The notes under the pieces: model-generated
Database searches by the model: none
What the model was told of the DNA's origin: nothing
Seen by the model: only the letters and a program-made list of their open reading frames with translations
Sequence record: PX994957.1
DNA length: 64,000 nt
Source: a phage
Reading direction: 5' to 3' (one strand)
Shown: positions 50,679-58,586 of the stretch, in pieces
How the letters are laid out: every line of letters starts with the position of its first letter
Position numbering within the stretch: position 1 is the first letter of the stretch
Translations under genes and position numbers: made by a program

Positions 50679-51068
50679 TTAATCCAAAATATTATTAGGC
50701 ATTGGTTGAACACTCACAAGTTCTTTAAAGAACTCAGTAGAGTCAGGCAATTTAACCATTTCCGGAGCATGCTTATTAAATTTATGTTTACAATGACGGC
50801 ATTTATATTCAAGCTCTGGTTTACGCCAGTTAATCAATTGAACTTGTTCAGTACCGCATTCAGGGCAATTAGGAACGTTTTTAGAAGCTCTTTCACGTCG
50901 TTCAACCATAGCCATAATAGCATCCCATGCTGGAGGTTTAAAATCTAAATCGTCGCAGCCGTGAATCTTTCCACGCATTTCCAGATCGTCTTCTTCACCA
51001 GCCATAATAATTTTAATTAGACTAGAATTACTTGAAGCTGCAATGTCTTCTAATAGACGCTTTTTCAT
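50679..51068 (-). CDS. zinc-finger protein
   Basis: 129 aa; CPECG...CRHCKH. Confidence 0.5.
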
Positions 51069-51991
51069 TTCAATACCTCAATAGCATTACGTAAACCATT
51101 TGCTTTGGCGGTTAAAGCCTTAAGAACTTTAGTATGCTCTTCAATTTGTTTTTCAACTTCAGTCAAACGGACATTGAGATATTCACGTTCTTCTTTCATA
51201 GTATCATTTCCATGATTGGGTTTTGGTATAGGTTTAAATTCACTAGGGTCCTTTAATTTAATAACAAATTTAGTTTCAAACAGTGAAAGACCATAATTCG
51301 TATTATCATCAAAGGATTTGACTACATCCATATCAGATAATAACACGCGCAAATTATAAGCCAAAGAACTAATAGTTTCATTGTGTTTATTAGCTTCGCG
51401 TGGTTTCATATACGGAAGATTTTTATATATCTCATGCGGAGCGCAAACGATAATTGACAATTCAAATTGTCCATTCTGGGACGATGGAATGAATTTAGCC
51501 GTAACCCAGTCTTTTACATTCACATTAATAGTACGGTTATCACCATGACAAAACAGTCTACGAGAATGCTTAAAAAGCATATTCACGTTATTATTGAATT
51601 CGTGTGAAAATTCACTAGCAAATTTTTCTTTACTATCTTTAGAAAACCATTCTTCTAAATAAGTTCTTTTCACGTCGTTAATAATATTAAATGTAACAAC
51701 ACTAGCATTTGATACATTAGTCTTAATGTAGCTTGGATACATAAATTTTTTAACATTATTAACAGCTATCACAGAAGATAGTAATCGGGAACGTTTGAAC
51801 CACTCGAGCAAAGAACCAAGAGAATGTGAATACGCATTTTGTGTATCTTTACAAATATGGTTTTCCCATCCAATATAGTCTAAAAAATCACGAAGAATAT
51901 TATTGATTACTGCTCTGTGTCCGATTTGATAATTACGGTGTTTAGTAATAAGACTGTCAAAATAATCAATATAATGTTTACGAGTTTTCAT
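51065..51991 (-). CDS. hypothetical protein with C-terminal coiled coil (array member 1)
   Basis: 308 aa; MKTRKHYIDYF start; tail [42 protein letters not shown]. Confidence 0.6.
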   Translation of the reverse strand: MKTRKHYIDYFDSLITKHRNYQIGHRAVINNILRDFLDYIGWENHICKDTQNAYSHSLGSLLEWFKRSRLLSSVIAVNNVKKFMYPSYIKTNVSNASVVTFNIINDVKRTYLEEWFSKDSKEKFASEFSHEFNNNVNMLFKHSRRLFCHGDNRTINVNVKDWVTAKFIPSSQNGQFELSIIVCAPHEIYKNLPYMKPREANKHNETISSLAYNLRVLLSDMDVVKSFDDNTNYGLSLFETKFVIKLKDPSEFKPIPKPNHGNDTMKEEREYLNVRLTEVEKQIEEHTKVLKALTAKANGLRNAIEVLK

Positions 51992-52013
51992 GTTCTTCTC
52001 ACTTGGTTAATGA

Positions 52014-52043
52014 TTTATACTCCGAGCCATCCTTGGCTTTAAA
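52014..52043 (-). promoter_or_regulatory. early promoter variant
   Basis: TTTAAA -35 (52038-52043), 18-nt spacer with AGCCATCCTTGGCT dyad, TATAAA -10 (52014-52019). Confidence 0.4.
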
Positions 52044-53045
52044 TTACTTAATTAACTGTAAAGCTTGTTCAAGACGATCAAGACGATTAACAGATTCTTC
52101 CCAAATCCTTTTAGCCTGCTCATATTCTTTCTGCGCTTTATTAGAAATTTCTAGAACTTCTTTATAAGCTTTTTCTAGTGCAATAACTTCTGGACGAATT
52201 TCTACCGGTTCAGGTGAATCATCAAGATTATCCATTAGTTCCTCAAGGGTAGTTTCTTCTTTAGGAGTATTCACAATTTCATCACATTTTTGTTGATAAA
52301 TTTCTTTATCAGTAGGTGAGTACGCGCACTTTACTTCACGAAGACTAATTACAATTTTATATCCTTCCCAACCGCATATATTCTTAAAAGGATAAGTATG
52401 AATATTTTCTACTGTTTCCATACAATCCAAAGCCGTCTCTAATTGATGAGTTATAGTGCTAGCAATTGAGAAAAATTTATTAATATTCTTTTGGTTAGCT
52501 TCTGGTGTAAAAAATTCGTAATTCACAAAAATAGCTACTTTGTTTTTATCAAGCTCATATTCTTTTACGATAATCATATCAGAAGCCAAAGGATGAATTT
52601 GACGATAATCGCCATAACATAATTTAGAAGCTGATTTTAGAATTTGTCCTTTAAAAAGTCTGAAATTACTAATCCAACGACGAGTAAAAATATTCTTAGG
52701 GTCTTCTTTGATATTAAGATGATAAGAATTAACATCACCGAACCAATTGTATCCTATTACACCTTTAGTTTGTTTAATTTCTTTCCCAAATTTACTAAGA
52801 ATATCTCTGTTGACTAAGTATGAAAGAAGACGAGACCCTTTAAAGATTATCTTAATATCATCTTTATCTACACGGCTAGAAATTTCACGAACTTCATGAA
52901 TAAATTTACTGGAAGAAACAATACTTGCATCAATACTGCTGAGCCATTGATTGATAATAGAAAGAACAACGTTCTGACTAGACATGGGTTTAACTTTATC
53001 ATCAATAACACTATTGAATGATTTGATATATTCGTTACGAGTCAT
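52044..53045 (-). CDS. hypothetical protein with C-terminal coiled coil (array member 2)
   Basis: 333 aa from ATG 53045 with SD GAGGAGATTATT (track start lies inside the promoter -10); tail KEYEQAKRIWEESVNRLDRLEQALQLIK. Confidence 0.6.
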   Translation of the reverse strand: MTRNEYIKSFNSVIDDKVKPMSSQNVVLSIINQWLSSIDASIVSSSKFIHEVREISSRVDKDDIKIIFKGSRLLSYLVNRDILSKFGKEIKQTKGVIGYNWFGDVNSYHLNIKEDPKNIFTRRWISNFRLFKGQILKSASKLCYGDYRQIHPLASDMIIVKEYELDKNKVAIFVNYEFFTPEANQKNINKFFSIASTITHQLETALDCMETVENIHTYPFKNICGWEGYKIVISLREVKCAYSPTDKEIYQQKCDEIVNTPKEETTLEELMDNLDDSPEPVEIRPEVIALEKAYKEVLEISNKAQKEYEQAKRIWEESVNRLDRLEQALQLIK

Positions 53046-53073
53046 AATAATCTCCTCAGTAGAAAGTAAGAAC

Positions 53074-53103
53074 ATTATACCACATCCTTGTGGTAAAGTA
53101 AAC
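53074..53103 (-). promoter_or_regulatory. T-even early promoter
   Basis: GTTTAC (53098-53103), 18-nt spacer, TATAAT (53074-53079); same spacer dyad as the rIIA.1 promoter. Confidence 0.55.
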
Positions 53104-54128
53104 TAGTTCAGTGCATTTAATGCATTGTTCAGTTTAGAACGTTGCTTCGTGAGATTTTTGACTTTTTCTTGTGCTTTTTCTAGCATCTTTTCAGCTTCTA
53201 ACACTTCATTGGTCGCTTTAACGAGTTCATCATCTACTGCCTTGATAGACTTCTCAATCGCATCCGCGTGCCATTTTTCAACAGGTTTAAGACTCGGATT
53301 TTCAATAGGAAGAAAATTCACTTTATTGAATTTCCATGCATCTTTATTACCTGAACTATACATCCAAAATTTAGGATCGTTTGATGAGTAATTGGATAAA
53401 TTTAAATTTAAGTTATCTTGCACTTCCTGCTTCTTCTCTTGCGTGACTTCGTCCTTTCTCAAAAAATCATATTTAAATGAAACAATCATATCAAGTTCAT
53501 ATGTTGTTGTGTCTAATTTAAATCGTTCGAAATGCTGTGAAATCTTAGATTGAACAGCAGCAACAACATCCATATACTTAAATGCTTCTGTCAGCTGTGA
53601 TTTAAGGCATTCACAAATTGAAAGAGAATTTTTTGTATTAGGTTTAAAGCTAATTCGTGCAGTTCTATTATTTTCTTTTAACGGTCTTACTTCCATCTGA
53701 AGAGTATAACCATCAAATTTCAGGTTCTTTAAGTTAATGTCAGAACCTTTTAATCGACTAGCCGTCGACAAAATTTGCTTTAATTGTTTACGGAATAGAG
53801 CAATAAATCTCCATTCAAGACGGTAATGATTTGGATTAAAAAATCCTGTTGATAAATCAACCTTACTCTGACCAACGCCTTGAACAAATAGAGGATTTTT
53901 ATAATCAATAGTTTTACAGAAATCGGTGAGCTGTTCGCGAGCAGTCATTTGCGTAATATATCCAGCTTTATCAAAATGTCGCAGCCATTCACTGCTATTC
54001 ATATACTTAAAGTGAATGGAACTATTAACTCTATCAGGGTCTAAATTATTTTGGCACAAAAATGTCATAACATCACGAGTATAGCTGGCATTACGAACCA
54101 TATCTTCAATTTGAGAACGAGTTTTCAT
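53103..54128 (-). CDS. hypothetical protein with C-terminal coiled coil (array member 3)
   Basis: 341 aa; MKTRSQIEDMV start; tail LEAEKMLEKAQEKVKNLTKQRSKLNNALNALN. Confidence 0.6.
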   Translation of the reverse strand: MKTRSQIEDMVRNASYTRDVMTFLCQNNLDPDRVNSSIHFKYMNSSEWLRHFDKAGYITQMTAREQLTDFCKTIDYKNPLFVQGVGQSKVDLSTGFFNPNHYRLEWRFIALFRKQLKQILSTASRLKGSDINLKNLKFDGYTLQMEVRPLKENNRTARISFKPNTKNSLSICECLKSQLTEAFKYMDVVAAVQSKISQHFERFKLDTTTYELDMIVSFKYDFLRKDEVTQEKKQEVQDNLNLNLSNYSSNDPKFWMYSSGNKDAWKFNKVNFLPIENPSLKPVEKWHADAIEKSIKAVDDELVKATNEVLEAEKMLEKAQEKVKNLTKQRSKLNNALNALN

Positions 54129-54136
54129 GGTGTTCC

Positions 54137-55024
54137 TTAAGATTTAAGTAAATCAACAATTTTAATTAATTTTTCACGTTCAGATTTAGCTTTACTACTC
54201 AATCCAGATAGTCTGAATATTTCATCATCATATTGTTGAATAGAAATATTTAGCTCTTCAATTTGCTTATTAAAATAATCAATTTGTTCAGAATGTTTTT
54301 CGTTACTACGAACTGGTACAGGTTTTGTAGGTAATTTAGATGAACTGGATTCATCCGGGCGATAAATTAAAATACAACTTGAACCAATTGGACATTTTGC
54401 ACCAGACACATATTCTAATGTTCCGGCTTCTTTTAAAACTTCAAAAGCTAAACAGAGATGATGCCCCATATTAACATAATCTGTAGAGCGAGCTCTGACG
54501 TAATAATCATCTCCACGAGTGCTAAATTTAAAGCATTTAAGGTCTTCTGTATTATTTGTCTTAAAAATCATTTGTTTATCTAGACCTTTAGCTAATCGAG
54601 CGCCTAATGCTAATAATCGTCGTTGATTTTCCCACAAATCCTCAATCATTTGATCGAATGATAATTTTGGCATTAGTCGACCATAAAGGTCATATCCTTT
54701 ATTATAATTGCGAAGAATTTCACTTGCATTAATACGAGACAATGCTCCAATTTTATTAAGGGCTTTCATAATGCGATTAGATAAATCCATTCCAGACTCG
54801 TGTGTTCGCTGCAAATGTTTTTCTAATCCAAATCCAATATCAACTTTAAATTTATCTAAAATTTCAGCATGAACATCTTTGTCAATAACATTCAAATTCA
54901 GAGTTAGATTAAATCTATGAAAAAATTTATCTGGCTCTCCACGACGAAGTACAGTCCATTCATTCATTTTTTTATTAACTAAAGATTTAATTACTGCATT
55001 GACATTATTAATTACTACTGACAT
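54137..55024 (-). CDS. hypothetical protein with C-terminal coiled coil (array member 4)
   Basis: 295 aa from ATG 55024 with SD GTGAGGAAAATATG; tail QIEELNISIQQYDDEIFRLSGLSSKAKSEREKLIKIVDLLKS. Confidence 0.55.
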   Translation of the reverse strand: MSVVINNVNAVIKSLVNKKMNEWTVLRRGEPDKFFHRFNLTLNLNVIDKDVHAEILDKFKVDIGFGLEKHLQRTHESGMDLSNRIMKALNKIGALSRINASEILRNYNKGYDLYGRLMPKLSFDQMIEDLWENQRRLLALGARLAKGLDKQMIFKTNNTEDLKCFKFSTRGDDYYVRARSTDYVNMGHHLCLAFEVLKEAGTLEYVSGAKCPIGSSCILIYRPDESSSSKLPTKPVPVRSNEKHSEQIDYFNKQIEELNISIQQYDDEIFRLSGLSSKAKSEREKLIKIVDLLKS

Positions 55025-55031
55025 ATTTTCC

Positions 55032-55439
55032 TCACTCAATTTCAATTTTACTAAATACGCAGAATATGATGGAAAAGACTATATAAGCACCGCATACAGA
55101 TTGAACTAATACCATTCCAAAGAACCAAACAATATTATCAAACAATGTCTGTTTTACGTCGAAAGGACGTAAACTTACAGTAATATTATCACCTTTTTCT
55201 ATTGAAGAATACATCTCTGGTGAAATATATTCGCTAAATCTATAACCGTCATTTAGTTCATATACAGCAATAAACGATAAACTAGACCCCTTTCCTTGAG
55301 TTCCTGTAAAGGTATTAACTACAGTAACATCATAATCTTTATAATGCATATAATCATTAATTGCGTAATAACCATATGCAATTACTATACATAAACAACA
55401 TATCAATAAATTCAATCTTTTAATTATCAACCGTTTCAT
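55032..55439 (-). CDS. membrane protein (two predicted TM segments)
   Basis: 135 aa; N-terminal LLICCLCIVIAYGYYAI and C-terminal FFGMVLVQSVCGAYIVFSIIFCVF hydrophobic stretches. Confidence 0.55.
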   Translation of the reverse strand: MKRLIIKRLNLLICCLCIVIAYGYYAINDYMHYKDYDVTVVNTFTGTQGKGSSLSFIAVYELNDGYRFSEYISPEMYSSIEKGDNITVSLRPFDVKQTLFDNIVWFFGMVLVQSVCGAYIVFSIIFCVFSKIEIE

Positions 55440-55468
55440 AATAATCTCAATTAAAAGGGCTTAGAACC

Positions 55469-55498
55469 ATTATACCATCCTTGGTATAAAGCGGTTAT
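55469..55498 (-). promoter_or_regulatory. candidate extended -10 promoter
   Basis: TGgTATAAT on minus strand (55469-55477) but no recognisable -35. Confidence 0.3.
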
Positions 55499-56022
55499 GC
55501 GAGTACCGTCTTTAACCGTTCTTCAAACTTCCGAAGAGTATTTTGGCGTTCAGCTCTTTGCTTTTTGTAAGTTTCAATACGCTCTGAAATGAGAGTGTAT
55601 CGTTCATTTACTGATTTTTTCATAAAATCAGGAATTTCACGAGAAGCTTTAATCTCGTCAAATTTATCAATAACAGCTTGCTCTTCAGCAATTAAGTTAT
55701 CATACATCAAAATATCTTTCTTGATGAACTCAATATCTTCTTGAGTTACACGAGATAATTTAGATGCTTTATCCTTTTTGTACTGTTCGTTAGTATCACG
55801 AGACCAGTGTAATGTACGATTTTTATTCGTGTTCTTGTAAATTTCTACAATACCAATCTCATCGATAATAACGATCCAATTCCAACGGGATTTGTAAATT
55901 TGCCCTCCATCAACCGTGATTTCACCACCGATTGAGACATCATTAAAGAACTTGCTTTGAGCTTCAGATTTAAATTTACCATCATTGTAGTTTACCAAGT
56001 TGAAAATATCTTTAGCATTCAT
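55495..56022 (-). CDS. hypothetical protein with C-terminal coiled coil
   Basis: 175 aa from ATG 56022 with SD GGAGGAACAGAAA; track N-terminus is promoter read-through. Confidence 0.55.
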   Translation of the reverse strand: MNAKDIFNLVNYNDGKFKSEAQSKFFNDVSIGGEITVDGGQIYKSRWNWIVIIDEIGIVEIYKNTNKNRTLHWSRDTNEQYKKDKASKLSRVTQEDIEFIKKDILMYDNLIAEEQAVIDKFDEIKASREIPDFMKKSVNERYTLISERIETYKKQRAERQNTLRKFEERLKTVLA

Positions 56023-56050
56023 TTTCTGTTCCTCCGTAGTTGATAGTTGC

Positions 56051-56080
56051 ATAGTACCACAGAGGAACGGTCTTGTAAAC
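56051..56080 (-). promoter_or_regulatory. T-even early promoter
   Basis: GTTTAC (56075-56080), 18-nt spacer, TACTAT (56051-56056); GTTCCTC / GAGGAAC inverted repeat. Confidence 0.55.
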
Positions 56081-56082
56081 AA

Positions 56083-56397
56083 CTAAAAGAAACTTCTTTC
56101 ACAATTTTTTCCACTGAACCAAGCGCTCACTGCTTTCTTAGTCTCAGGAGCAGTGTTATCCATAAACCATTCAAAGGCAGCCTTTTTATGATTCTGGAGG
56201 GCTTCTCGGGCTTTAATCTGCTCACGGTCTATTAACACTAACATATGAGCCTTTCTTGTCACCAAAGGCTTCTTATGATTTTTTGAATACTCCCAATCAT
56301 TTGTCCAACGCATTGTCGTTGCGAACTGAAATACTGCTTCTTTAATTTTAGTTTCGTAAATTTCACGAGCCTTTGAGTATAACATCATTACCTCCAT
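56083..56397 (-). CDS. hypothetical protein
   Basis: 104 aa; start may be the ATG 9-12 nt downstream, just after SD GGAGGT. Confidence 0.5.
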   Translation of the reverse strand: MEVMMLYSKAREIYETKIKEAVFQFATTMRWTNDWEYSKNHKKPLVTRKAHMLVLIDREQIKAREALQNHKKAAFEWFMDNTAPETKKAVSAWFSGKNCERSFF

Positions 56398-56487: not shown

Positions 56488-57456
56488 TTATTTCAGAAGA
56501 GTAACCTCAGCGATTTCTTGCCAACCGTTTTTGTCGGTCATAATAAAGTCAGCAAGATAAAGTGCAGTACGCAGTGAAACATTGCGTAAACGGTTAACAT
56601 TGACTTTCATCCATGATAATGCTTTATAAGTTTCTTCATCAGAAAGACCGCGCTTTTGCATCATGTCGGTTGAAAGAATAACATCTTCAACCCTGACCAT
56701 AATTTCTTCATTAGTGTGAACACCCAAATCTAAATAAACTGAGCGGGACACTAATGCTTGTAAATGTGGAGCAAGTTTAGTACCACGGTCTAATTCGCGG
56801 TCAATGTCAACGTTTGTGATAAAAACAATCGTTCCTTTAAATTCAAACTCACGCTCAATGCCTTTTTCTTCTAAGTAAGAAGATGCAGTGCTCCAGCAGA
56901 CTTTACGGGTCTCTCCAGTGTCCAGAGCAGCTTTCAGAAGATTAAGAATGTCCATATCAGAGAAAACATCCACATCATCAATCAAAAGGACAGAATTCTC
57001 TTCACGATTATTCCAAAGTTGTTCATAAAGACCGATACCGGAGATTTTACCGTTAATGCTTTTATATTCAATGTATCCATTATCATTTGCTTTATTCAAA
57101 GCTTTATCTAAAGAATACGTTTTACCAATACCCGCCGCACCAGAGATAATTAATGAACGAATGTTTCCGTTAATAATACCATTCGTCATCATTCCCATAA
57201 CATTAAATCTTTTATTAATGCGGGTTTTCATATCTTCATATGATTCTTTAACTTCTTCAACTTTTACACCATCATATGAAATGTCTGATTTATAAACCCA
57301 AACACCGCGACGTTTACCGTCAATTTCAACAAAAACTTTACCATCTCCTTGTGCATCTACCGGAGCATTATCTGGGAACCATTCGCCTAAGAGCTCAAAA
57401 GTTCCAGAGATTTCTTTACCGAAGTAGATACCCTTATTGATAGTTACAGTTTTCAT
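56488..57456 (-). CDS. P-loop NTPase (AAA-like ATPase)
   Basis: 322 aa from ATG 57456 with SD GGAGAATAAA; Walker A GAAGIGKT, Walker B VLLIDDVD; track N-terminus is promoter read-through. Confidence 0.65.
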   Translation of the reverse strand: MKTVTINKGIYFGKEISGTFELLGEWFPDNAPVDAQGDGKVFVEIDGKRRGVWVYKSDISYDGVKVEEVKESYEDMKTRINKRFNVMGMMTNGIINGNIRSLIISGAAGIGKTYSLDKALNKANDNGYIEYKSINGKISGIGLYEQLWNNREENSVLLIDDVDVFSDMDILNLLKAALDTGETRKVCWSTASSYLEEKGIEREFEFKGTIVFITNVDIDRELDRGTKLAPHLQALVSRSVYLDLGVHTNEEIMVRVEDVILSTDMMQKRGLSDEETYKALSWMKVNVNRLRNVSLRTALYLADFIMTDKNGWQEIAEVTLLK

Positions 57457-57490
57457 TTTATTCTCCAAATCCGTATCAGTTGATAGTTGT

Positions 57491-57520
57491 ATAGTACCAT
57501 AAAGCTTTATGCTTGTAAAC
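57491..57520 (-). promoter_or_regulatory. T-even early promoter upstream of the ATPase gene
   Basis: GTTTAC (57515-57520), 18-nt spacer containing palindrome ATAAAGCTTTAT, TACTAT (57491-57496). Confidence 0.55.
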
Positions 57521-57552
57521 AATTTTGTGAAAAAATTTTTGAAATAAAAAAA

Positions 57553-57570
57553 GGGAGCCCGAAGGCTCCC
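57553..57570 (-). terminator. intrinsic terminator after the NTase-like gene
   Basis: GGGAGCC CGAA GGCTCCC followed on minus strand by UUUUUUUAUUUC. Confidence 0.65.
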
Positions 57571-57572
57571 TA

Positions 57573-58586
57573 TCATTTATAATAACTTCGGTGGTTTTCA
57601 AGATAAACCTTCTCAAGGAAGTCATCCCAGAAACCCATGTCTACTTTTTGCTGCATACCGTTCTTAGAAGCTTCAGTAGATGCTGCTTCTACTTGATCGA
57701 CCACATCTTCCAAAAACTCTTGAACTGTTTTAAATGGATGTTTACCCAACTTCACGTCGAGAATAAATGGAGCATCTTGAAGTGGATAAACCAAGTCACC
57801 AGTTTTGTAAATTTCCAATAGTTGAAGTCCACCACGGCAAGCATGGCTCAGAGCTTTCCAGTCAATGCCCTCATTCGCTTCAGCCTTACGAGCACGTTCG
57901 CCGTATTCAGCATCTAATTTGTTAAGTGACTGCTTAAGCTCAATAAGAGAAAGTGTTGTCTGATATTTACGACCCAACACAGTGTAAAACGTTTGTGGAC
58001 CTGTTTTCTCATGATTATGGAATACCCATTCACAGAACTCGTTTTCAGGGAGTCTGTGTTTGATATCTTCTATCTTAGTACGACGAAGTCTATCAGGGAT
58101 TCCTTCTTGATAGTCGACCCACTGGTCAGGGATTTGATTAACTACTTTCAATACATCACGTAATGCGGCCAAACGAGAACCCTTGACACCGTATTTAGAA
58201 GCTTGCTTGCGGACATATCCTAAATAGGATTTCATGTTAGTTGTATAAAACCGTGAACGATTGTCTTGGATAAATTTCCATACATCAGGCAAATCAGATT
58301 TAACCACTAGTTCAGGCGGAGTGTGAAGCATATCCAATGCTACAGTTTCACCATCTGCTGCTAATTTAAAGAAATACTTAAGACTGTATAGTTCATGGTC
58401 AATATCATCTTTAGTGTTTTTAGATGATGTGTTGTTAGTGTTTTTACTCATATGCTCTTTAACATTTCCGATAAGAATATCGCGAGCACGAGGAACAAAG
58501 ATTTCTTTAAAATCTACATCAGATTCTGGAGTAGAAGTTCCATAAAGATGACTACCAAAATAGCTTTTCATTACTGTTTTCATCAT
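57573..58586 (-). CDS. nucleotidyltransferase-fold protein
   Basis: 337 aa; N-terminal FGSHLYGTSTPESDVDF fits Pol-beta NTase GS-x10-DxD signature with a later candidate catalytic Asp (VALDMLH). Confidence 0.55.
   Translation of the reverse strand: MMKTVMKSYFGSHLYGTSTPESDVDFKEIFVPRARDILIGNVKEHMSKNTNNTSSKNTKDDIDHELYSLKYFFKLAADGETVALDMLHTPPELVVKSDLPDVWKFIQDNRSRFYTTNMKSYLGYVRKQASKYGVKGSRLAALRDVLKVVNQIPDQWVDYQEGIPDRLRRTKIEDIKHRLPENEFCEWVFHNHEKTGPQTFYTVLGRKYQTTLSLIELKQSLNKLDAEYGERARKAEANEGIDWKALSHACRGGLQLLEIYKTGDLVYPLQDAPFILDVKLGKHPFKTVQEFLEDVVDQVEAASTEASKNGMQQKVDMGFWDDFLEKVYLENHRSYYK

Follow-up and report, generated by a model that had tools for sequence, protein, structure and literature searches.

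What are the four consecutive minus-strand genes at 51065-55024 of the phage sequence PX994957.1, of which a stretch of 64,000 nucleotides (the window) was analysed, and what might four proteins of similar size with similar C-termini do for a phage? An initial annotation made from the letters had described these open reading frames (ORFs) as sharing only a C-terminal coiled-coil tail, and as either a diverged paralog array or a set of variable heads on a common tail. That observation is largely correct, non-random and partly confirmed. Its coordinates were right, and the four proteins, of 308, 333, 341 and 295 amino acids (aa), are the counterparts of T4 nrdC.3, nrdC.4, nrdC.5 and nrdC.6. Together they form an old tandem-paralog array of one superfamily, so far found only in the T4-like phages (Straboviridae). 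The genes, in order of transcription, are as follows.

54137-55024, minus strand: nrdC.6, 295 aa, transcribed first in the array; the most divergent paralog; PF26899 on homologs, phrog_2257
53103-54128, minus strand: nrdC.5, 341 aa; Pfam DUF7235; 92.6% identity to T4 NrdC.5
52044-53045, minus strand: nrdC.4, 333 aa; PF26897 and phrog_1435; the hub paralog, used for the structure model
51065-51991, minus strand: nrdC.3, 308 aa; phrog_1435, like nrdC.4

A 5.1-kb stretch containing the array is 97.1% identical to RB51 and 93.7% identical to T4, and it matches about 600 phage records, few of which fall outside Tequatrovirus; by sequence identity, the window is that of a Tequatrovirus phage. In T4 the counterparts are annotated as nrdC.3 (308 aa), nrdC.4 (333 aa), nrdC.5 (340 aa), nrdC.6, nrdC.7 (a membrane protein) and nrdC.8, which lie on a single strand, bounded by nrdC and endonuclease VII on one side and nrdC.10, nrdC.11 and mobD on the other, and are all labelled "hypothetical". 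The array genes are adjacent and co-oriented, with intergenic gaps of 8-57 nucleotides (nt), and the end of nrdC.3 overlaps the start of nrdC.2 by 4 nt. The ATG of nrdC.4 at 53045 has a GGAG motif 7 nt upstream, and the MS... start of nrdC.6 is kept in all homologs. The MKTR start that had been noticed in two of the ORFs belongs to nrdC.3 and nrdC.5, while nrdC.4 starts with MTR.

Homology of the four heads

Existing family models keep the array apart. nrdC.5 matches DUF7235 (PF23882) over profile positions 1-307 of 307 (404.8 bits, E=3.4e-121; gathering score 30 bits), and nrdC.3 falls outside this family because its match reaches only 14.5 bits and lies on the tail. phrog_1435 is matched end to end by nrdC.4 (E=4.6e-166) and nrdC.3 (E=1.4e-98), with PF26897 as a precomputed annotation on nrdC.4 homologs, and phrog_2257 matches nrdC.6 over residues 1-295 (E=9.1e-150), with PF26899 annotated on homologs. 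Pfam and PHROG thus hold three separate families with no function assigned (DUF7235/PHROG 2351 for nrdC.5, PF26897/1435 for nrdC.3 and nrdC.4, PF26899/2257 for nrdC.6), which are joined here by profile-profile and structural comparison.

The initial annotation had found the N-terminal domains little alike, and by eye and by BLASTP this stands: nrdC.3 and nrdC.4 align (E=1e-4, residues 65-225 and 68-213), and the other head pairs show nothing. At the level of profiles and structures it does not. A hidden Markov model (HMM) of the nrdC.4 family matches nrdC.3 residues 3-228 (E=6e-14). The first hhalign runs, on shallow alignments, gave colinear but weak matches (probabilities 6-14%); after the alignments had been deepened with nrdC.5-like proteins that come from Gaprivervirus and Dhakavirus and are 23-28% identical, nrdC.3/4 matched nrdC.5 with a probability of 87.6% (E=3.5e-6, 245 columns) and nrdC.6 with E=1.7e-4, colinearly over 196 columns that all lie within the head. 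With the tails removed, nrdC.3/4 scored 46.1 against nrdC.5, where 60 column shuffles gave 14.2±2.5 (maximum 22.2; z=12.7), and 30.6 against nrdC.6, where they gave 14.9±2.5 (maximum 20.8; z=6.3). Reversed controls scored 13-16, and the tail-only profiles, at 12.6-18.8, scored lower than the heads. These links are convincing only because the divergent Gaprivervirus and Dhakavirus homologs were added and the shuffle null was run. The direct comparison of the nrdC.5 and nrdC.6 profiles was not significant (z=1.3), and the relationship between these two is transitive, since both match nrdC.3/4.

Pairwise HHalign comparison of the heads, which had been suggested at the outset, is therefore significant for nrdC.3/4 with nrdC.5 and with nrdC.6. 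Full-length colinear similarity links nrdC.3 to nrdC.4 and nrdC.3/4 to each of the other two, bearing out the idea of a diverged paralog array and contradicting the statement that only the tail is shared. Furthermore, when the 105 ORFs of 80 aa or more in the window are compared, the best foreign match of the nrdC.3/4 HMM is nrdC.5 (1.2e-4) and that of the nrdC.5 HMM is nrdC.3 (6.4e-4), making the two reciprocal best matches. Three motifs recur in the heads: an N-terminal one reading FKGSRLLSYLV..IL..F in nrdC.4, FKRSRLLSSVI in nrdC.3, FDKAGYITQMT in nrdC.5 and LNKIGALSRIN in nrdC.6; a second aligned as ILKSASKL.YGD / ILSTASRLKGSD / LLALGARLAKG / MLFKHSRRLFCHGD; and a third aligned as ALDCMETVE / AFKYMDVVA / LLSDMDVVK. 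A search of 1.84 billion cluster representatives with the nrdC.3/4 profile returned nine proteins at E<=1e-3, all of its own family, and therefore provided neither a bridge to nrdC.5 and nrdC.6 nor any cellular relatives; the array families are thus very narrow.

A recent duplication still visible in the DNA was considered and rejected, as only short chance repeats were found; the duplications are therefore old.

The AlphaFold2 model of nrdC.4 (predicted local distance difference test, pLDDT, 79.9; predicted template modelling score, pTM, 0.65) starts with a bundle of helices (residues 3-84), followed by a core of strands and helices (88-235), a linker modelled with low confidence (261-287) and a long C-terminal helix (285-332). 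The two parts of the head map to the DNA as follows.

52794-53039, minus strand: nrdC.4 N-terminal helical bundle, aa 3-84; holds FKGSRLLSYLV..IL..F
52341-52784, minus strand: nrdC.4 alpha/beta core, aa 88-235; holds ILKSASKL.YGD and ALDCMETVE

Searched with Foldseek against BFVD, this model matches NrdC.3 of phage fPS-65 (3.8e-8, probability 1.0), JS10 NrdC.6 (E=4.5e-5, probability 1.0, 338 columns) and about ten uncharacterized Straboviridae proteins of 300-370 aa, most with template modelling (TM) scores of 0.4-0.5 and 11-14% identity. The phages that carry these relatives are Acinetobacter Acj61, Acj9 and fHyAci03, Enterobacter IME523, Pectobacterium PM2, Erwinia Cronus, and Serratia PS2 and CBH8. 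In Acj61, which belongs to a different subfamily (Twarogvirinae), two such proteins (330 and 304 aa), with heptad-like tails, are encoded by adjacent genes just upstream of nrdC, the syntenic position. The link to this pair is structural only: none was found at the sequence level, and by sequence Acj61 p120 finds itself alone among 50,697 phage records. About 30 kb from the pair, Acj61 also carries genes for a nicotinamide phosphoribosyltransferase and a ribose-phosphate pyrophosphokinase (locus L016, 6229-8938), which together resemble a pathway for NAD+ reconstitution.

The nrdC.5 model is poor (pLDDT 50), its alignment being too shallow, and its fold search gave no match at E<=1e-3. Its secondary-structure order matches that of nrdC.4, and its sub-threshold Foldseek matches comprise tail completion proteins, Serratia PS2 A0A023W506 and Salmonella phage Melville A0A2D1GM86, the last two of which are also in the nrdC.4 match list, together with E5EYP1, whose accession is adjacent to that of the nrdC.4 match E5EYP0.

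Could the heads nevertheless be unrelated, with a common C-terminal coiled-coil module acquired, or converged on, through module shuffling? Most head pairs are blank by eye and in BLASTP, nrdC.5 and nrdC.6 do not match directly, paralogs of this array do recombine, and the nrdC.3 alleles described below keep their ends while the middle differs. Module shuffling is nevertheless essentially refuted, and we give it hardly any weight: tail-less, colinear profiles score far above their shuffle nulls, the nrdC.3 and nrdC.4 heads match by HMM, the nrdC.4 model matches NrdC.3 and NrdC.6 over their full length, and in profile comparison the tails are less alike than the heads.

In addition, the topology of the nrdC.4 alpha/beta core resembles that of tail terminator and tail completion proteins (lambda gpU, SPP1 gp17-like, DUF3168), with Z below 8 and sequence identities of 3-16%; RNA polymerase alpha/Rpb11-like domains share this fold class and appear in the same match list. 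Unlike tail terminators, the array proteins are early and non-essential and have extra N-terminal helices and a coiled-coil tail, and their genes are placed in the early nrdC-mobD region rather than among the late structural genes of the tail and neck module. The resemblance, which comes from a predicted model, is a lead only.

Coiled-coil tails

The C-terminal segments behind the initial observation were delimited in each protein.

54140-54307, minus strand: nrdC.6 coiled-coil tail, aa 240-295
53106-53285, minus strand: nrdC.5 coiled-coil tail, aa 282-341
52047-52193, minus strand: nrdC.4 coiled-coil tail, aa 285-333; a single 48-residue helix in the model
51068-51193, minus strand: nrdC.3 coiled-coil tail, aa 267-308

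Each protein was scored in 28-residue heptad windows against 300 composition-preserving shuffles. The best window is C-terminal in all four, and its score was reached by 0 of 300 shuffles for nrdC.3, 3 for nrdC.4, 0 for nrdC.5 and 7 for nrdC.6; none of six neighbouring ORFs was significant. Along the tail columns of the family alignments, mean hydrophobicity varies with a dominant period of 3.45-3.5 residues, the power at 3.6 being two- to fourfold lower. One heptad register runs unbroken for 49-60 residues (7-8 heptads) in each tail, and 74-84% of the a/d positions are hydrophobic, against 22-28% elsewhere. With a coiled coil defined as at least four uninterrupted heptads with hydrophobic a/d positions, all four tails qualify, and the heptad segment that had been reported at the end of each ORF is upheld.

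The tail ends are also alike (AIEVLK, ALQLIK, ALNALN and IVDLLKS; pattern L..A(L/I)..L(K/N)), and similar endings occur in Gaprivervirus (AIKALK) and in Acinetobacter phage Acj61 (KALEIMML). Searches of PDB sequences with the array proteins returned designed helical repeats and coiled coils only, the nrdC.5 tail giving weak matches to keratin and Smc coiled coils. From their sequence pattern, the tails would be expected to oligomerise.

A fifth ORF (55495-56022, nrdC.8) had been credited with a similar coiled-coil ending, and this did not hold up: its heptad score was reached by 53 of 300 shuffles and it lacks the 3.5-residue periodicity. nrdC.8 was also rejected as a fifth member of the array, as it has no hhalign profile similarity to any of the four families.

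Distribution, allelic variation and genomic setting

The gene order nrdC.6-nrdC.5-nrdC.4(-nrdC.3) is kept across genera, with four array copies in Tequatrovirus and three in Gaprivervirus and Dhakavirus; RB69 has an annotated nrdC.3. Matching phage records number 654 for nrdC.3, 554 for nrdC.4, 582 for nrdC.5 and 742 for nrdC.6. The array genes are dispensable on laboratory hosts and undergo loss in natural phages. Phage ACG-C40 (locus L017, 4302-4713), for example, has a natural deletion that leaves it without nrdC.4 and most of nrdC.5 and nrdC.3, and in another phage (record P0056) a deletion joins nrdC.5 to nrdC.3 at a short shared ...VN motif, creating a natural in-frame NrdC.5::NrdC.3 chimera.

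The four array proteins are 90-95% identical to those of T4, compared with 96-100% for most flanking proteins; nrdC.2 (82.5%) and nrdC.7 (90.2%) are the exceptions. The ratio of nonsynonymous to synonymous substitution rates (dN/dS) is 0.16-0.22 for nrdC.3-nrdC.6 and 0-0.11 for the neighbouring genes gene 49, pin, nrdC, nrdC.8, nrdC.9 and nrdC.11, with higher values for nrdC.7 (0.65) and nrdC.10 (0.29). These ratios mark the four as real genes under constraint, although most of the neighbouring genes are constrained more tightly.

Within otherwise more than 90%-identical genomes, nrdC.3 occurs in two allele classes, with about 140 records at 90% identity or more and 284 at 60-80%. The difference is concentrated in one part of the gene.

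51206-51811, minus strand: nrdC.3 central part, aa 61-262; differs between the two Tequatrovirus allele classes

At the ends of the protein the classes are 80-100% identical in amino acids, with 100% nucleotide identity over the first 20 and last 7 codons; in the middle, identity falls to 43-72% for nucleotides and 30-60% for amino acids, and the central domains are 30-57% identical. The middle has a dN/dS of 0.40 and the ends have values of 0.11-0.24; dS is 0.6-1.1. The nrdC.3 alleles are ancient, exchanged by recombination, and differ mostly in the alpha/beta core. Within this one gene, the second explanation of the initial annotation survives in a softened form: across the array the heads are homologous and of one fold rather than variable heads on a common tail, while among nrdC.3 alleles the head does vary.

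Two further arrangements were observed. In Gaprivervirus and Dhakavirus a predicted membrane protein of 71-78 aa is encoded between nrdC.6 and the nrdC.5-like gene (L002, 4712-4948; L003, 4736-4951); Tequatrovirus instead encodes a membrane protein, nrdC.7, upstream of nrdC.6. Shigella phage Sf25 (P0121) has a 378-aa NrdC.6 homolog that is 95% identical to the window protein, the usual length being 295 aa, and may represent a fusion or a start-site artefact.

Two intergenic sites resemble T4 early promoters by consensus match.

53074-53102, minus strand: T4 early-promoter-like site (TTTACT, 17-nt spacer, TATAAT with TG) in the 57-nt gap upstream of nrdC.4
56051-56079, minus strand: early-promoter-like site (TTTACA, 17-nt spacer, TACTAT with TG) upstream of nrdC.8

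Given gaps of 8-55 nt, the second site probably also drives nrdC.7, nrdC.6 and nrdC.5. Overall, the promoter scan was not above background (41 sites against 34.8±5.7), and only individual intergenic sites are cited, as inferences. Early transcription of the array fits these promoter-like sites and the published description of nrdC.5 as an early gene (PMC9391042).

Among the neighbouring genes, nrdC.2 (50679-51068) encodes a zinc-ribbon protein of 129 aa, compared with 104 aa in T4, and is the most divergent gene of the stretch. nrdC.11 (within 56488-58586) encodes an RlaP-like (RNA-repair-pathway) nucleotidyltransferase (PF10127, E=7.7e-11) and adjoins nrdC.10 in the same interval, a weak P-loop/STAND-like NTPase. 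A strong terminator-like hairpin (57571-57552) with a T-run directly follows the nrdC.11 stop and is itself followed by an early-promoter-like site (57519-57491); because of these elements (57491-57576), the 362-aa nrdC.10 ORF is probably over-extended. A T4-type nrdC.10 start (MKTVTINKG) lies at about 57465.

Many GenBank phage genomes call every nrdC.x gene in the interval 51065-56397 'thioredoxin' (for example, 'thioredoxin (x8)'). Neither Pfam nor NCBIfam gives a thioredoxin-family match for any of the four array proteins, and searches of NCBIfam and PADLOC yielded nothing meaningful; the label has spread from the gene symbol.

A candidate role in counter-defence

One member of the array has a published function. 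According to Srikant, Guegler & Laub (eLife 2022; PMC9391042), a T4 clone that had lost non-essential DNA no longer plated on ECOR17, deletion of host dsr1 restored its plating, cloned dsr1 protected MG1655 from it, and expression of T4 nrdC.5 restores its plating on dsr1 cells. Dsr1 is a SIR2 NADase; it has its sensor in common with Avs7, and what triggers this sensor is the major capsid protein (Nature 2026; PMC13581612). The window nrdC.5 is the ortholog of T4 NrdC.5, with 92.6% amino acid identity over 339 residues, the same position in the array and a full-length DUF7235. The earlier study presents T4 nrdC.5 as a single uncharacterized gene, with no domain analysis, paralogs or mechanism (PMC9391042), and our literature search turned up nothing more recent on nrdC.3-nrdC.6 and no account of these genes as a paralogous group.

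Taken together, nrdC.3-nrdC.6 are old tandem duplicates, early and dispensable, that probably serve as host-range or counter-defence factors with specificity heads and oligomerising tails. As nrdC.5 is the published anti-Dsr1 gene, nrdC.3, nrdC.4 and nrdC.6 are good candidate anti-defence genes, which most likely neutralise other host immune proteins. All four share one build, in which a short bundle of helices at the N-terminus is followed by an alpha/beta core, a linker that varies and is partly disordered, and a C-terminal amphipathic helix of 7-8 heptads. In T4, according to the literature, NrdC.5 neutralises the SIR2 NADase Dsr1. The globular head, chiefly its central alpha/beta domain, may bind the defence protein or its sensor domain and so block activation, which would make the central domain the specificity determinant. 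The coiled-coil tail may turn the inhibitor into a dimer or higher oligomer and thereby increase its avidity for oligomeric defence proteins, and duplication, divergence, allele replacement and deletion of members could tune host range.

The closest functional analogue is DSAD1, the DSR2 inhibitor of SPbeta-group phages, which also counters a defence-associated sirtuin triggered by a virion protein; its different target, DSR2, sets it apart from the array. A small protein, DSAD1 directly binds DSR2 and is not known to have the architecture of the array proteins. Dsr1, like DSR2, is triggered by a structural protein, in its case the major capsid protein (PMC13581612). The T4 anti-toxin-antitoxin (anti-TA) island (dmd, tifA, adfA) likewise consists of early non-essential genes that each disarm a different host defence; its genes are not described as paralogs in that study (PMC9391042), whereas the array arose by tandem duplication of one gene.

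Several observations weigh against this interpretation. The functional data are limited to nrdC.5 and come from the T4 ortholog (92.6% identical) rather than from this phage, and binding, oligomeric state and mechanism are inferred for every member. Overall dN/dS is below 1, with no direct signature of positive selection. The superfamily itself has weak joints: the direct nrdC.5-nrdC.6 comparison, the failure of the search of 1.84 billion representatives to reach either the nrdC.5 or the nrdC.6 family at E<=1e-3, and the poor nrdC.5 model with its empty fold search.

The paralogs might instead be subunits of one hetero-oligomeric complex, joined through their tails and serving a single function, rather than independent effectors. 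Such an assembly would suit the adjacent, co-oriented and tightly spaced genes (8-57 nt gaps), the similar L..A(L/I)..L(K/N) motif that ends every tail and the C6-C5-C4(-C3) order kept across genera. We nonetheless consider it improbable, as the copy number is three or four, there are natural phages without nrdC.4 and with little left of nrdC.3 and nrdC.5, and nrdC.3 swaps alleles independently of the other members. In addition, nrdC.5 alone on a plasmid restored infection on dsr1 cells, the other paralogs retained by the clone not being stated in the available part of the source (PMC9391042).

Equally unlikely, in our judgement, is that these are true paralogs for general host takeover or phage physiology rather than immune evasion, the effect of nrdC.5 on Dsr1 being indirect. 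nrdC.5 has no published mechanism and selection on the array is purifying overall, which would agree with such a role. Against it, the genes are dispensable on laboratory hosts and lost in natural phages, they lie in the early rather than the late structural region, the array diverges from T4 more than the flanking genes (90-95% versus 97-100% amino acid identity), and the central domain of nrdC.3 is dimorphic.

A more specific proposal, to which we assign a similarly small chance, is that the superfamily comprises oligomeric decoys or blockers directed at bacterial pattern-recognition receptors for conserved virion proteins. The predicted shape of the alpha/beta core is like that of a virion protein (tail terminator or tail completion). 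Each paralog or allele would be adapted to block the sensor cavity of its own Dsr1- or Avs-type receptor, different from those of the others, and tandem duplication with central-domain allele swapping would let the phage track receptor diversity. The variant in which the core is a tail-terminator decoy of the Dsr1 trigger loses weight, since what Dsr1 senses is reportedly the major capsid protein and not the tail terminator (PMC13581612).

The genes themselves and one function, that of nrdC.5, were already known; what is new is that three domain-of-unknown-function families are brought together as one superfamily with coiled-coil tails, and that three further counter-defence genes are predicted. 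The findings are incremental, in that accessory anti-defence genes are expected in this T4 region. T4 is the best-studied phage, yet its nrdC.x genes still go under the name hypothetical or, mistakenly, "thioredoxin". The three families now form a Straboviridae-wide superfamily whose members are too diverged for sequence searches. A domain map has been gained, with a putative specificity head, a variable central domain and a presumed oligomerising tail, and the two nrdC.3 alleles provide a natural experiment on specificity. Linking nrdC.3, nrdC.4 and nrdC.6 to the anti-Dsr1 gene nrdC.5 thus yields three concrete candidate counter-defence genes.

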